The notes: generated by a model from the sequence alone, not told the origin. Positions 2,776 to 27,307 are shown, numbered from the stretch's first letter. The stretch is 32,000 nt of DNA from Promethearchaeota archaeon (GCA_048938295.1 JBHLMI010000001.1:59449-91448); one strand, 5' to 3'. Made by a program: numbers and translations.

Positions 2776-4260
2776 TCAAGGCTCCCATTTGAAGGGGTGT
2801 TTTGCATATTCTTTATCAGAGAGGAGTTCATCGATGCTCGGGCGTCCTTCGATGGCACGGCGGAGGGCATGACGCATTGCCTTGTAGTTGTTAATGAGGA
2901 TGCGTTTCCGATCCACTGCTGTTGGATGCACAAAGACGGTTGCGACAATCAGTAATTGGTCCACAGCGGATTTGGGGATGAGTCCTTCTTCAACCGAATC
3001 CATCACCGCTTTGGCACATCCGGTTTGAGCTGGACCACCGAATAAGCTAGCCTGGTGCATGCTCCGATTAGCTACTGTTGGTACAAGGAGGGTTTCAGGT
3101 TTGACCATAAGATTGGGTTCGAGAATAGCGAGAAGGGGTTCCATGCGTTCCTTCGGTGCCGCTTTTGCCTGGGCAAAGGCATATCCTACAGGGCCATCCT
3201 TGCGTCCAATCATTAGGTCGATATGGGCGACTTCAGCACCAGACCCAGCAAGTCCTTCTCCAACCTTAATGGAGAAGTCTTTGATGTACTCGGGTGTGAA
3301 CCCGATGACGCCGAATCGCGCTTCTAGAGGCTCTTTGGGTTCTACTTCGATTTTCACCGGTTGGCGGTCGATTTTTCCAAGCTTCTCTAGTTCAATGCGG
3401 ATTTCCTCACGGTTTTCGTAGGTGAGAACTCCGCCAAACGTTAAGGGGAGTCGAGGCTTACCCACCGAGACACCCATCATATTCAATCCCGCCTTTGTAC
3501 CTGCAGCTCCGGATCCCACAATTAATCGTGTGAGTTTCTGGACCTTGAGCTGCAAAGCCACAGCTTCTGAATATTTTTTGGCTTGCACTTTCTGCAACAT
3601 ATCGAGCCAGATGTCCCCAATGAGTTGTGCGCTAGCCAGAATCGCTCCTGAACACCCTGAAGCGAGGGCTGGAAACACGACCTCGTCATGGCCGACTAGC
3701 ACGTTAATCTTTGATCCGACTTTTTCCAAGACCGCAAGGATGAGTTTGAGTTGTCCACTGGAATCTTTGATGCCCACAATATTCTCCAGGTCGGCTAAGT
3801 CTTCAACGATTTGCCAGGGTATATCTAAACCCGTGCACTGGGGAATGTTGTAGAGGATAATTGGCAATCCCACCTCATTCACAAGACGATAATGTTCATA
3901 CAATCCACGCAACGTGGGACGCATATAGTAGGGAGTAACTACAAGGCAAGCGTCAGCCCCCGCTTTCTTGGCATACTCAACAAGTGTGATCGTTGTTTTC
4001 GTGCTACTGGCACCAGCACCTGCAATGACGGGGACCTTTCCCGCTGCCTCCTCTATGGCAAGCTTGACCACGTGTTTATGTTCTTCAATAGTCAAGCTAG
4101 TGAACTCGCCGGTTGTTCCTGCTGGGACAAGGCCGGTGATTCCTAGCTTGTCAATGCAATGGCGAATCAGCCTGCGAAATGCAGTTTCATCAACCTTTGC
4201 ACCATCCTTTGTGAATGGGGTAACGAGTGCGGGGTTTACCCCACCTGGTTTAAATCCCAT
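2776..4260 (-). CDS. fae: Fusion of a DapA-family class I aldolase (aa ~1-297) and formaldehyde-activating enzyme Fae (aa ~330-494)
   Basis: N-domain: TPF, GTTGEF, TPYY, LYNIP and the Schiff-base GIKDSSG (K165). C-domain: VGEGLAG..AEVAHIDLMIG (H346), PNLMVKP.TLLVP, AQ..CAKAVMDSVEEG.IP, VFVHP. GGAGAG RBS upstream. Confidence 0.9.
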   Translation of the reverse strand: MGFKPGGVNPALVTPFTKDGAKVDETAFRRLIRHCIDKLGITGLVPAGTTGEFTSLTIEEHKHVVKLAIEEAAGKVPVIAGAGASSTKTTITLVEYAKKAGADACLVVTPYYMRPTLRGLYEHYRLVNEVGLPIILYNIPQCTGLDIPWQIVEDLADLENIVGIKDSSGQLKLILAVLEKVGSKINVLVGHDEVVFPALASGCSGAILASAQLIGDIWLDMLQKVQAKKYSEAVALQLKVQKLTRLIVGSGAAGTKAGLNMMGVSVGKPRLPLTFGGVLTYENREEIRIELEKLGKIDRQPVKIEVEPKEPLEARFGVIGFTPEYIKDFSIKVGEGLAGSGAEVAHIDLMIGRKDGPVGYAFAQAKAAPKERMEPLLAILEPNLMVKPETLLVPTVANRSMHQASLFGGPAQTGCAKAVMDSVEEGLIPKSAVDQLLIVATVFVHPTAVDRKRILINNYKAMRHALRRAIEGRPSIDELLSDKEYAKHPFKWEP

Positions 4261-22949: not shown

Positions 22950-23110
22950 TGATTTGCCGATGCGTAACAGTGAACTATCCCTGCATTAGCTCAGGGATTT
23001 CCATCGAGTCCACTACCGGTAGAACGTGGGGTAGGGCTGTGTGTCGATGCAAGCCATTCCAAAACTGCTGTAATGGCTCCCCGTTCACAGGGGGTTGTTG
23101 CAATAGGAAC
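22950..23110 (-). ncRNA. Predicted TnpB omegaRNA (scaffold overlapping the tnpB 3' end plus guide from the flank)
   Basis: Stem-loops CCCC/GGGG (23079-23093), AGCCATT/AATGGCT (23052-23078) and ATCCCTG/CAGGGAT (22977-22998), then TTCAC. Predicted guide TGTTACGCATCGGCAAATCA (22969-22950). Boundaries are inferred. Confidence 0.55.
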
Positions 23111-24330
23111 CGCACCATGATATTGACCGCGGCATTCTGATCCCGGTCAAAGGAGGTTCCACAATTGCATTGAATAACTCGCTCAGATAATTTTCGGGCC
23201 CTCTTCTTGCCGCATAAACAGCATCGCATGGTGGTCTGAGCCTCATCAATTCTTATTACACGCTTACCTACTTTTTTGGCTTTGTAGGTTAAGAATTGGA
23301 CAAAGCGCCCCAAGAAGCCGGTGTTCTGCAGCGAATGATTCAACGTGCGATTGGCGGCATCCTGTCGCTGACACCCCGATGCTCGCTTTTTCTTTGCCAT
23401 GCGTTTCACCGCGAGCTCGCCAACGATGAGGGTTTTGGCTCGCGTATTGTTTACTACCACTTTAGAAATTTTATGTTGGAAGTCTCTTAATTGGTTGGTG
23501 AGCTTGTGTTGCATTTTCTGCCCCTTCTGCTGATAAAAGTACCATTTTTTACTGAATTTTTTGCAGTGATCACGTCGAGATTGCACCTGCCGAAGTTTGT
23601 CTTTCCAGTACAGGTCGGAGCGACGATTGCGAATTTGGAAAAACCGTCCTTGCTGGTTTACAGCAGTGACCAAGTTAATTACCCCTATGTCGATGGCTTG
23701 ATATCGGCTATTGTCTACAAACGGCAGTACAGCCACATCGTAGGTAATGGCAACGAACCATCGTCTTTGTCGATCCTGAAACAGGTCCACTTGTTTGATT
23801 CGACCTTTCGCGGTCGGTAACCAGGGCAAGGTAAATTCTAGGTTAACTTCTGTGGGGTGGTGGTGGGAAAAACGAATCCGTTTGTTCTCGATATCCAAGG
23901 TGAAGCCGGATTGATTGTAGCACAGTGTGGTAAAGTAGTGTTTACCTTTGAAACGGGGTGGTCGGGCCCGAAAGTCGCCGCCGCGCCAGCGGGCAAAGAA
24001 GGACTTGTAATCTGCATCGAGTCGGCGAAGAGTCATTTGCAAGACCTTGGAGTAAACCCAGGTGTATGCGGGAAATTTAGCCTTAAGGGCTGGGAGGGCG
24101 TTTTGTTGTTGGGTGTACGTGATGTGGGTTCGCGCAGTGGTCGGCTTCGTCTGATTAATTGTCCACTGGTGGCGCCGTTCAGCTAAGGCGAAGTTGTAGA
24201 GATGCCGGCATTGTTCGGATAAGGCCCACAAGACTTGAACTTGTGTTGTCGTAGGAGCGATGCGGATTTTTTGCGTTAACAACATCGAGGTCATGCTAAA
24301 GTTAGAAAGGTCTTGGAAATTTTTCAAGCT
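22970..24330 (-). mobile_element. IS200/IS605-family element carrying only tnpB (IS1341-like); left end not defined
   Basis: Right-end hairpin GAAATCCCTG-AGCTAATG-CAGGGATAG followed by TTCAC; no tnpA nearby; inserted between divergent GDPD and mrp. Confidence 0.75.
22975..24294 (-). CDS. tnpB: TnpB RNA-guided endonuclease
   Basis: N-terminal HTH (QKIRIAP...CRHLYNFAL), RPPRFK, RuvC-I AIDIG, zinc finger CCLCG...CNCG and RuvC-III DRDQNAAVNI. Start probably ATG 24294 or 24285; the ORF track gives 24327. Confidence 0.93.
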   Translation of the reverse strand: MTSMLLTQKIRIAPTTTQVQVLWALSEQCRHLYNFALAERRHQWTINQTKPTTARTHITYTQQQNALPALKAKFPAYTWVYSKVLQMTLRRLDADYKSFFARWRGGDFRARPPRFKGKHYFTTLCYNQSGFTLDIENKRIRFSHHHPTEVNLEFTLPWLPTAKGRIKQVDLFQDRQRRWFVAITYDVAVLPFVDNSRYQAIDIGVINLVTAVNQQGRFFQIRNRRSDLYWKDKLRQVQSRRDHCKKFSKKWYFYQQKGQKMQHKLTNQLRDFQHKISKVVVNNTRAKTLIVGELAVKRMAKKKRASGCQRQDAANRTLNHSLQNTGFLGRFVQFLTYKAKKVGKRVIRIDEAQTTMRCCLCGKKRARKLSERVIQCNCGTSFDRDQNAAVNIMVRFLLQQPPVNGEPLQQFWNGLHRHTALPHVLPVVDSMEIPELMQG

Positions 24331-24453
24331 GTGGGAGAGGTATGGATAACTGACTAATCGATTCCTCCTCGCTATGAAGAAAGTTGATTACCCGGTAAAA
24401 TAATTAAAGGTGTTCTCCATGAAGCACCAACAGCTTCCGACTGGTTTCTGGTC

Positions 24454-25480: not shown

Positions 25481-27307
25481 ATGAAACATGCAACGCGATA
25501 CGGTCCGGTGATTAGGCGACTCCAACGGCGAATGATAAACTATGTGGAGAATGGACCCACCCCTGGAGCTACGATGTCTGTGGTTACTAGTGCTGGTCCC
25601 CTCTGGATGGAAGGCTTTGGATATCGGGATTTAGCAAAGTCTGGTCTAGTTGACACCCAGACCATCTTCCAGATAGGATCCACCACAAAGTTGTTCACTG
25701 GCCTCTCATTCATGCTTGCTGTTCAAGATGGTCTGGTTTCTCTGGATGATACGGTAGTTGCCTACTGGCCGGAATTTACAATTAACTCTAGACATGGCCC
25801 AAAGGAACATGAGAAGATCACTTTCAGGCATCTTCTATCACATCGGGCTGGTTTACCCAGAGAGCCCCGTATTGGCGGGAACTTCAATAATGAAACCCCC
25901 TACACTTTCGAGCAGGCGGTTGAATCAATCAAGGATTGCTGGATGATTGCCCCTGTCAATGATCGCTACTACTATTCAAACATTGGAATGGATATCGTAG
26001 CCTACTCGCTTCAATCTGCAACTGGCATGACGTACCCGAATTGGACAAAGAAGAAGCTAGGCGCTCCTCTTGGGATGACCACGCTACGATATGGAAGTGG
26101 CGAAGCACTCAAGGAAGACAACGTCGCCATAGGAACTGAAACTGGAAGATACGAGTGTGAATTTGGCGCGTCTGAAGATTATGGCTGCGGGGATGTCTGG
26201 ATTGGCCAGGAAGATCTTGCGAAGGTCCTTGTCCTCGTCCTGAACGAGGGCAGGTACGATGGAAAGACAGTACTTAGAAAGGACCTATTTCAACAAATGA
26301 TTCGCCCACATTTCGTCAAAGACAGAGGGTTTAATTATGGTCTGGGCGTTGACATCTACGGAGGGTTTAACCCAAGAATTTTCGGACATGGCGGTGGCTC
26401 CATTGGATACGCAAGTACCTTCTACTGGATTCCTGTCTATGACTTCGGAGTGAGTGTCCAGACCAATCGCGAAGACTACACTGGAGAAACCAAGAACCCA
26501 CATACACTCGGAACGCAAGCACGAGAACAGCTCCTCAAGACACATGGTGTATTGCTTACTCGAAGACAACCCATCGAGTTCCTTGAAGAACAAGTCGAAG
26601 CACCACTTATCGAAGATAAGTCCAAACTTACCGGCTTCTATGCCGGGCTATGGAATAACACCGTACTAATCACGTACAAAGAAGGGAAGCTCTATTGGCA
26701 TGATCAGTTCGAGCTCACACCAAAGGGTAATGGATTCAAGCTGCCATCTGGCAACAGTGTCCGATTCAACTTCAAATCAAAGAAATCCAAACAGCCGTAT
26801 AGCGTAACTTACGTTGGCATCAGATACCCCATAGCTGAACTCAATATGTCACGAGTAACACCCGTTAAACCCACCCCTAATGCCCCACCACTCAACCCAG
26901 AACAAGCTGAGAAAATCACAGGGATTTACAAAGCCACCTACTATGGCATAGAGCCCACCTTCAACCTCGCTAAAGTCGACGAAGGACAACTCTACGTACA
27001 AACAATACTCGGTTTACGACCTGCCTACCCCCATTCTTCCATCAAAGGACTATGGTTCCTACCCAAGGGCGAGACCGTAACCTTCAACGGCAAAGACGAA
27101 CTCTGGGTTGAAAACTGCCGCGGCGTCAAATGGAAAAACCCTATACAGGAACTCAAGGCACTAGCTAAAACTAATCCAAGACACCGACTACTACAAAAGT
27201 GGGTCCTTGACCAAATCGCTACTCATCTCAAGACACTTGGTCGAAAGAATGAGGCAAAAGACGTTCGAGCACTTAAAAAAGAACTCTACGGACAGAAGAA
27301 AAAGTAA
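25481..27307 (+). CDS. Serine hydrolase, beta-lactamase/AmpC-like family, with a long C-terminal extension
   Basis: FQIGSTTK (SxxK), LLSHRAGL, YYYSN (YxN) and FGHGG; ~250 aa of unassigned C-terminal region; no signal peptide. Confidence 0.85.
   Translation: MKHATRYGPVIRRLQRRMINYVENGPTPGATMSVVTSAGPLWMEGFGYRDLAKSGLVDTQTIFQIGSTTKLFTGLSFMLAVQDGLVSLDDTVVAYWPEFTINSRHGPKEHEKITFRHLLSHRAGLPREPRIGGNFNNETPYTFEQAVESIKDCWMIAPVNDRYYYSNIGMDIVAYSLQSATGMTYPNWTKKKLGAPLGMTTLRYGSGEALKEDNVAIGTETGRYECEFGASEDYGCGDVWIGQEDLAKVLVLVLNEGRYDGKTVLRKDLFQQMIRPHFVKDRGFNYGLGVDIYGGFNPRIFGHGGGSIGYASTFYWIPVYDFGVSVQTNREDYTGETKNPHTLGTQAREQLLKTHGVLLTRRQPIEFLEEQVEAPLIEDKSKLTGFYAGLWNNTVLITYKEGKLYWHDQFELTPKGNGFKLPSGNSVRFNFKSKKSKQPYSVTYVGIRYPIAELNMSRVTPVKPTPNAPPLNPEQAEKITGIYKATYYGIEPTFNLAKVDEGQLYVQTILGLRPAYPHSSIKGLWFLPKGETVTFNGKDELWVENCRGVKWKNPIQELKALAKTNPRHRLLQKWVLDQIATHLKTLGRKNEAKDVRALKKELYGQKKK

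Follow-up and report, generated by a model that had tools for sequence, protein, structure and literature searches.

A relocated RuvC-II glutamate has been in print since 2023, where it appears as RIIr (PMC10691335), TnpB2 (PMC10530073) and Ealt (PMC10711439). The relocated residue was described on β-strand 5 rather than β-strand 4 (PMC10691335). One archaeal protein with a rearranged site, TvTnpB of Thermoplasma volcanium, is an active nuclease that depends on a transposon-associated motif (TAM), and the rearranged-site enzymes tested to date are without collateral cleavage (PMC10530073). In ApmFz2, the Fanzor2 of Acanthamoeba polyphaga mimivirus, the catalytic triad seen by cryo-electron microscopy consists of Asp324, Glu467 and Asp501 (PMC11832414), and the substitution E467A abolishes cleavage (PMC10530073). 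Here we analyze a gene with such a rearrangement in 32,000 nucleotides of DNA from a Promethearchaeota archaeon (GCA_048938295.1 JBHLMI010000001.1:59449-91448). This whole stretch is called the window below, and positions are counted from its first letter. We read the gene as a TnpB of the known rearranged RuvC-II class with the triad D213-E362-D396, and as the sole open reading frame (ORF) of a 1434-bp IS200/IS605-type element with an omegaRNA. We put the probability of this reading at roughly 0.85.

The window TnpB has the same glycine at the canonical glutamate position as TvTnpB/TnpB2 (PMC10530073), the Ealt TnpBs with a D-hydrophobic-G motif in RuvC-I (PMC10711439) and RIIr-5, in which glutamate is changed to glycine (PMC10691335). 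It also shares with the rearranged TnpBs a glutamate six residues before the first CxxC, the D-hydrophobic-G form of RuvC-I, an archaeal host, the IS200/IS605 context, a Y1 TnpA in relatives and an omegaRNA at the right end. The TAM is different (TTTAA in the window, NTGAC for TvTnpB). The second zinc knuckle is CxC in the window, whereas the literal search pattern of PMC10711439 (Yoon et al. 2023) demands CxxC twice. The full pattern fails in the window TnpB solely at C387xC389, and because of this CxC knuckle a literal search would skip the family.

ApmFz2 (PDB 9b0l, PMC11832414) has the same relocated glutamate, Glu467 being equivalent to E362 and Asp501 to D396, and both proteins have a glycine at the canonical position (CIGKL in ApmFz2, LIVGEL in the window) and the same TnpB fold. 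However, ApmFz2 differs in its DPG motif in RuvC-I, its N-terminal extension with a nuclear localization signal and its viral/eukaryotic host, and its sequence alignment to the window TnpB covers the C-terminal half only. ISDra2 TnpB (PDB 8exa, 8h1j) and the IS1341 group share domain order and fold with the window TnpB, and their elements have the same insertion 3' of a 5-nt TAM without duplication, the same overlap of the omegaRNA with the 3' end of tnpB and a guide taken from the flank. ISDra2 TnpB is the best structural match (E 4e-19) and the best full-length profile match (97 bits), but it has a canonical RuvC-II glutamate (Glu278) and the TAM TTGAT. Unlike in ISDra2, the window ORF reaches almost to the last base of the element, and nearly the whole scaffold lies inside the coding sequence.

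The aCas1-associated TnpBs Cas1H-Asgard-1 and -2 (PMC10691335) resemble the window locus in their Asgard hosts and in a GTTCAC(T) motif at the 3' end of the locus; GTTCACTCA has been reported beside a hypervariable stretch there (PMC10691335). In Cas1H-Asgard the variable stretch stands before this motif, whereas in the window conservation ends with GTTCAC, and the variable stretch follows. A Cas1-linked element, prompted by the shared motif, was considered and rejected, as no Cas1 was found in the window genome or among the recurrent neighbors of 80 related loci.

The TnpB protein and its RuvC-II site

The tnpB frame is open on the minus strand over 22975-24327 (450 codons plus the stop), and residues are numbered here from the TTG codon at 24327. 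The true start is probably the ATG of M12 at 24294 or that of M15 at 24285, both of which are conserved among aligned homologues. From M12 the ORF (22975-24294, minus strand, stop codon TAG at 22977-22975) encodes 439 amino acids, the length of many homologues; the gene-caller product has 436, and called products range from 436 to 439. The protein scores 208.6 bits against the NCBIfam model guided_TnpB (NF040570, cut-off 100) and exceeds the Pfam cut-offs for HTH_OrfB_IS605 (PF12323, 37 bits), OrfB_IS605 (PF01385, 43.2 bits) and Cas12f1-like_TNB (PF07282, 68.8 bits). This score and the complete Pfam set place the assignment to TnpB well beyond chance. The AlphaFold2 model (pLDDT 82.3) has a TnpB/Cas12f-type fold: the best Foldseek match is ISDra2 TnpB (8h1j, E 4.3e-19, TM 0.74 by target), and 8iaz, Cas12f structures and the mimivirus Fanzor2 9b0l (E 3.6e-15) were matched as well. 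The ORF is unambiguously a TnpB, and homologues are already annotated as such in public metagenome-assembled genomes of Asgard archaea.

Two sets of relatives were used to follow the active site residues. The close set comprised 53 homologues with 53-81% identity to the window TnpB, and the distant set 92 full-length representatives of 50%-identity clusters, taken from the 150 best matches in a search of 1.84 billion proteins. The RuvC-I aspartate D213 (23689-23691; motif AIDIG, context QAIDIGV), G303 (23419-23421), E362 (23242-23244) and the RuvC-III aspartate D396 (23140-23142; motif DRDQN, context FDRDQNAA), all encoded on the minus strand, are invariant in 53 of 53 close homologues. The same is true for the four cysteines of the zinc finger, C369, C372, C387 and C389 (23161-23223, minus strand). 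G303 and E304 (23418-23416, minus strand) belong to the motif LIVGEL (context TLIVGELAVKRM), and in the AlphaFold2 model G303 is found at the end of β-strand 299-304. E362 (context RIDEAQTTMRCCLCG, or shorter IDEAQTTMRCCLCG) comes just after β-strand 356-361, the next strand after the one ending at G303/E304, and this placement matches the published β-5 description (PMC10691335). Its position six residues before C369xxC372 fits the E-x6-CxxC motif of PMC10711439. The second knuckle, C387-N-C389 (23161-23169), is CxC instead of CxxC and is invariant in the family. Two residues beside the conserved ones vary in the close set: position 214 is leucine in 49, valine in three and isoleucine in one homologue, with isoleucine (D-I-G) in the window TnpB, and position 304 is aspartate in 36, glutamate, alanine, asparagine or lysine in four each, and arginine in one.

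In family alignments anchored on L305 and M310, G303 falls in the canonical RuvC-II glutamate column, and E278 of ISDra2 TnpB falls on G303. A pairwise phmmer alignment to ISDra2 TnpB is off by two residues at RuvC-II (G276 on G303), and the family alignments were preferred. Among the 92 representatives, 59 have E303 and no glutamate in the 362 column (mostly proline), 32 combine G303 with E362, one has neither and none has both. When a tree was built without these trait columns, all G303/E362 proteins fell on one side of a branch with a support of 98, with the window TnpB nested among them. In the alignment to ApmFz2, E362 is paired with Glu467 and D396 with Asp501.

An earlier note, made from the window sequence, had described D213 and D396 as intact, the canonical xxEDL as LIVGEL with G303 in place of the glutamate, and E362 as an additional glutamate that ordinary TnpBs lack, and had proposed a rearranged RuvC-II site. 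These points are all borne out: E362 is absent from 59 of 59 E303 representatives, and the G303/E362 pair and E303 exclude each other in the distant set. The alignments support E362, and not E304, as the conserved alternative glutamate. In the proposed arrangement, G303 would replace the usual catalytic glutamate, and E362 at the end of the next β-strand would complete the D213-E362-D396 triad. E304 would then be the variable residue after the catalytic position, i.e. the "D" of the usual EDL.

Element boundaries, target site and omegaRNA

The window was compared with nine congeneric genomes in which a gene for an Mrp/NUBPL-type ATPase and a divergently oriented gene for a GDPD phosphodiesterase are direct neighbors and the spacer lacks a tnpB. 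The empty sites read ACC TTTAA, followed directly by TGTTACGC(A/T)TCGGCAAAAC, whereas at the occupied site the element stands between ACC TTTAA and TGTTACGC, and the right flank begins with TGTTACGCATCGGCAAATCA. This comparison yields an element at 22970-24403 (minus strand, 1434 bp, tnpB only, IS1341-like; the boundary is ambiguous by one nucleotide, a T), a TAM TTTAA at 24404-24408 (minus strand) directly 5' of the left end, no target duplication, and a guide from 22969 downward. The guide is the flank predicted to be transcribed after the scaffold (22950-22969, minus strand, TGTTACGCATCGGCAAATCA), as placed by the stop in conservation and by the empty sites.

TTTAA or a variant with one mismatch is found 5' of the left end in most of 16 aligned copies. 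These copies remain conserved across the 3' end of the ORF up to TAGTTCAC, and conservation breaks off abruptly behind GTTCAC. Copies with only 45-50% identity still have GTTCA[CT] at this offset. The non-coding left end (24295-24403, minus strand) contains conserved blocks (TTATTTGCC-like, ATAGTTATC and CTCCCACAGACTGAAAAA) with a putative role in TnpA binding or as a promoter, and it is unrelated in sequence to the right end. Insertion 3' of a short fixed motif, lack of a duplication and asymmetric ends are as in IS200/IS605 elements. The element appears to have inserted 3' of TTTAA into the 125-bp spacer between the Mrp/NUBPL-type ATPase and GDPD genes of an Asgard archaeon. If it behaves like ISDra2 and TvTnpB, the TnpB-omegaRNA complex would cleave alleles that read TTTAA plus TGTTACGCATCGGCAAA, i.e. 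the element-free site, and such cutting would favor retention or re-copying of the element.

The predicted omegaRNA scaffold (22970-23101, minus strand) overlaps the last ~125 nt of the ORF. Its helices are formed by 23093-23079, 23078-23052, 23049/23002 (long-range) and 22997-22978, after which TAGTTCAC leads to the right end at 22970. Compensatory changes are present in 20 of the 24 predicted pairs, and 95.6% of cells are paired, compared to 32-46% with the partners slid; none of 500 shuffles reached the observed values. A covariance model (R1), which was built from 27 copies, finds the omegaRNA behind tnpB in 12 loci outside the training set. Its strong hits in the host genome number exactly three, and each is located behind one of the three tnpB genes of the family. 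No orphan omegaRNA was detected there at high score by R1, and the single weak match, near a distant tnpB, scores 24 bits (E 0.008). Searches against Rfam with the window and with the element gave no match at E values up to 1. As judged from the covariation, the last ~130 nt of the element would encode an omegaRNA that ends in GTTCAC and runs into the flank as guide, i.e. a structured right-end RNA with a flank-derived guide. Copies differ in where the stop codon stands. With the scaffold placed within the ORF, conservation of the C-terminal tail of the protein (~residues 405-450) is best explained by constraint from the RNA.

Several further observations were made at the ends of the window element and of related copies. 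The TAM and the first bases of the left end (24396-24408, minus strand) read TTTAATTATTTT, which resembles an archaeal TATA box, and in the empty sites a distance of 45-57 nt separates TTTAA from the start of the Mrp-type gene. The insertion may have hit a promoter, and the element may rebuild part of it. Homing to promoters or TATA boxes as a general behavior was considered and rejected, as the downstream flanks of 34 other copies show no consistent relation to gene starts. At the right ends of five copies (L016, L029, L031, L034 and L066), a convergent neighboring ORF ends exactly in the terminal GTGAAC (reverse strand), with TGA as its stop codon. It may be that the final codons of host genes were exchanged for element sequence in these cases, or these ORFs may be artefacts of gene calling. 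The copies L036/L041 and L012/L014 come from different genomes and share guide and flank (e.g. TAATAAAATAGCTGATTAAT); each pair represents one orthologous insertion passed down to related species, and not two separate events. In a Hermodarchaeota copy (L011:~3780-3800), AGTTCAC, which is identical to the right terminus of the family, abuts TTAAA at the left end. A second omegaRNA at this left end was considered, and none was detected by R1.

Related copies, mobility and host

The host genome contains two further intact paralogues of the family (L002:191-1495 on C19 and L003:~1500-2811 on C6; 63-66% identical), each with its own omegaRNA (133 and 126 bits with R1) and a GTTCA[CT] right end. What the genome search listed as "stops inside" these paralogues is in each case the stop codon at the end of the gene. 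Contigs C15, C35, C33 (three sites) and C7 carry six tnpB-like genes (L004-L009) that are more distant (24-28% identity). Eight of 14 other genomes of the genus carry copies of the family (1-7 matches per genome, at most 77% identical), and none of these copies lies at the window locus.

At eight of the 80 related loci, an ORF from one and the same cluster is located directly upstream of tnpB on the same strand, and the four of these that were scanned are Y1 TnpA (PF01797, 127-132 bits). The recurrent neighbors of the 80 loci are Y1 TnpA and host genes (Ras-like GTPases, ThiF, UQ_con, LRR, ZIP and KaiC), so that Y1 TnpA is the sole recurrent transposase. Its presence beside relatives assigns the family to IS200/IS605 and makes the window copy non-autonomous. 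Transposition would require a Y1 TnpA in trans, such as relatives carry; none was found in the host genome.

Archaeal markers of the host are TBP and CDC48 in the window, and the genome contains a gene for profilin, an Asgard hallmark. The nearest homologues come from Hermodarchaeota and Odinarchaeota. At 44-50% identity the clade extends to Euryarchaeota, DPANN, Bathyarchaeia and a few bacterial genome bins, and its hosts include Methanoculleus, Methanosarcina, Methanoperedens and Thermoplasmata. With this broad distribution, the clade is not Asgard-specific. Elsewhere in the window, 25481-27307 (plus strand) encodes a protein of 608 amino acids. Its N-terminal domain is beta-lactamase/transpeptidase-like (PF00144, 168 bits), and the C-terminal half of ~270 amino acids is without a Pfam match.

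Alternative readings and the relation to Fanzors

Three results weigh against the reading as an active TnpB in an IS200/IS605-type element with an omegaRNA. The nearest homologue found is only 81% identical and the best one within the genus 77%, which gives no sign of very recent copying. In the host genome (2.52 Mb, 91.6% complete), no Y1 TnpA, serine recombinase (Resolvase family) or Cas1 (PF01867) was found, so that current mobility is doubtful. Finally, the single-sequence fold of the omegaRNA region is no better than that of shuffles (z -0.82), and support for the RNA therefore rests on covariation. The lack of a detectable transposase would also fit a catalytically dead or domesticated TnpB, i.e. 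an RNA-guided binder or regulator instead of a mobile-element nuclease. Loss of the canonical glutamate is likewise known in inactivated, exapted TnpBs, and archaeal tnpB genes in general show little recent mobility (PMC10691335). We consider a dead or domesticated protein unlikely, however, as none of the 53 homologues deviates in the alternative triad or the zinc finger, and the gene lies inside a bounded element with TAM, ends and omegaRNA that is absent from the orthologous site in nine congeners. Family copies occupy different loci and are patchy in the genus (8/14 other genomes), no conserved neighbor gene is found beside the 80 related loci, and the rearranged TvTnpB and ApmFz2 are active (PMC10530073). 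With an intact gene, an invariant triad, a complete element and a covarying omegaRNA, it is a reasonable inference that the window TnpB is an active nuclease. That E304 serves as the catalytic RuvC-II glutamate of this nuclease, with the canonical site moved by one residue and E362 merely incidental, is most improbable. E304 is acidic and adjacent to the canonical column, and the pairwise phmmer alignment to ISDra2 TnpB (IIGTEHL vs LIVGEL) can be read as a one-residue indel that places E278 near E304. However, position 304 is alanine, asparagine, lysine or arginine in 13 of the 53 close homologues and lysine, asparagine, serine or arginine in 12 of the 32 rearranged representatives, and ApmFz2 has a lysine at the equivalent position. 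Among the 92 representatives, the residue spectrum at 304 (D > K > N ...) is the same in the E303 and G303 classes, i.e. it equals that of the non-catalytic +1 position in canonical TnpBs, which makes E304 an ordinary residue of this kind. E362, on the other hand, is invariant and present exactly when the canonical glutamate is lost.

The earlier note also suggested that the occurrence of this TnpB in an Asgard host bears on the origin of Fanzors, and this part of it is not supported. If the gene belonged to the lineage that yielded the eukaryotic Fanzors, or to its sister, the Asgard host would be meaningful. The relocated glutamate common to both, the good alignment of the C-terminal RuvC half to ApmFz2 (48 bits over 162 residues), the profilin-encoding Asgard host and the presence of DPG variants in the same clade all point this way, but we regard such a placement as very unlikely. 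The host is archaeal, whereas Fanzors are found in eukaryotes or eukaryotic viruses, and the window TnpB is without an N-terminal extension or nuclear localization signal. RuvC-I reads DIG (D213-I-G) or, in relatives, DLG, and not DPG as in Fanzors and pro-Fanzors (PMC10711439). Pro-Fanzors are further defined by IS607 elements with a serine recombinase and by cyanobacterial hosts (PMC10711439); the window genome gave no Resolvase hit and is not cyanobacterial, and relatives of the element are associated with Y1 TnpA. Members of the clade also occur in Euryarchaeota, DPANN, Bathyarchaeia and a few bacterial bins. With the family profile, ISDra2 TnpB obtains 97 bits and ApmFz2 only 74.5 bits, and the Fanzor1 SpuFz1 is not reached. 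A deeper link of the clade to Fanzors is unlikely.

Two more distantly related TnpBs, P0133 and P0153 (L111:2592-4314 and L112:148-1870), combine a DPG motif in RuvC-I with the relocated glutamate and lie directly behind a Y1 TnpA, not a serine recombinase. They fall inside the same clade in a quick tree, and the combination of DPG and Ealt is therefore not confined to IS607 elements. It is conceivable that the Y1-associated archaeal Ealt clade, with its nested DPG variants and a CxC knuckle that the published pattern partly misses, lies nearer to the Fanzor stem than do the IS607 pro-Fanzors of cyanobacteria. If this were true, Asgard or other archaeal hosts would be a plausible route for TnpB into early eukaryotes. 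The profile similarity, the transposase association and the DIG motif speak against it, and we hold it to be highly improbable.

The relocated glutamate of the window TnpB is real, but it is an already described and widespread TnpB variant without a special tie to Fanzors. It is a clade-wide trait of a broadly distributed, Y1-associated and mostly archaeal group of TnpBs, and the picture of Fanzor origins is unchanged by it. To the known class, the window adds a cleanly resolved example with exact ends, the TAM TTTAA, an omegaRNA backed by covariation, a guide and natural empty sites. With an enzyme of ~439 amino acids and a predicted scaffold of ~130 nt, the system could easily be tested as a compact editor with an AT-rich TAM.

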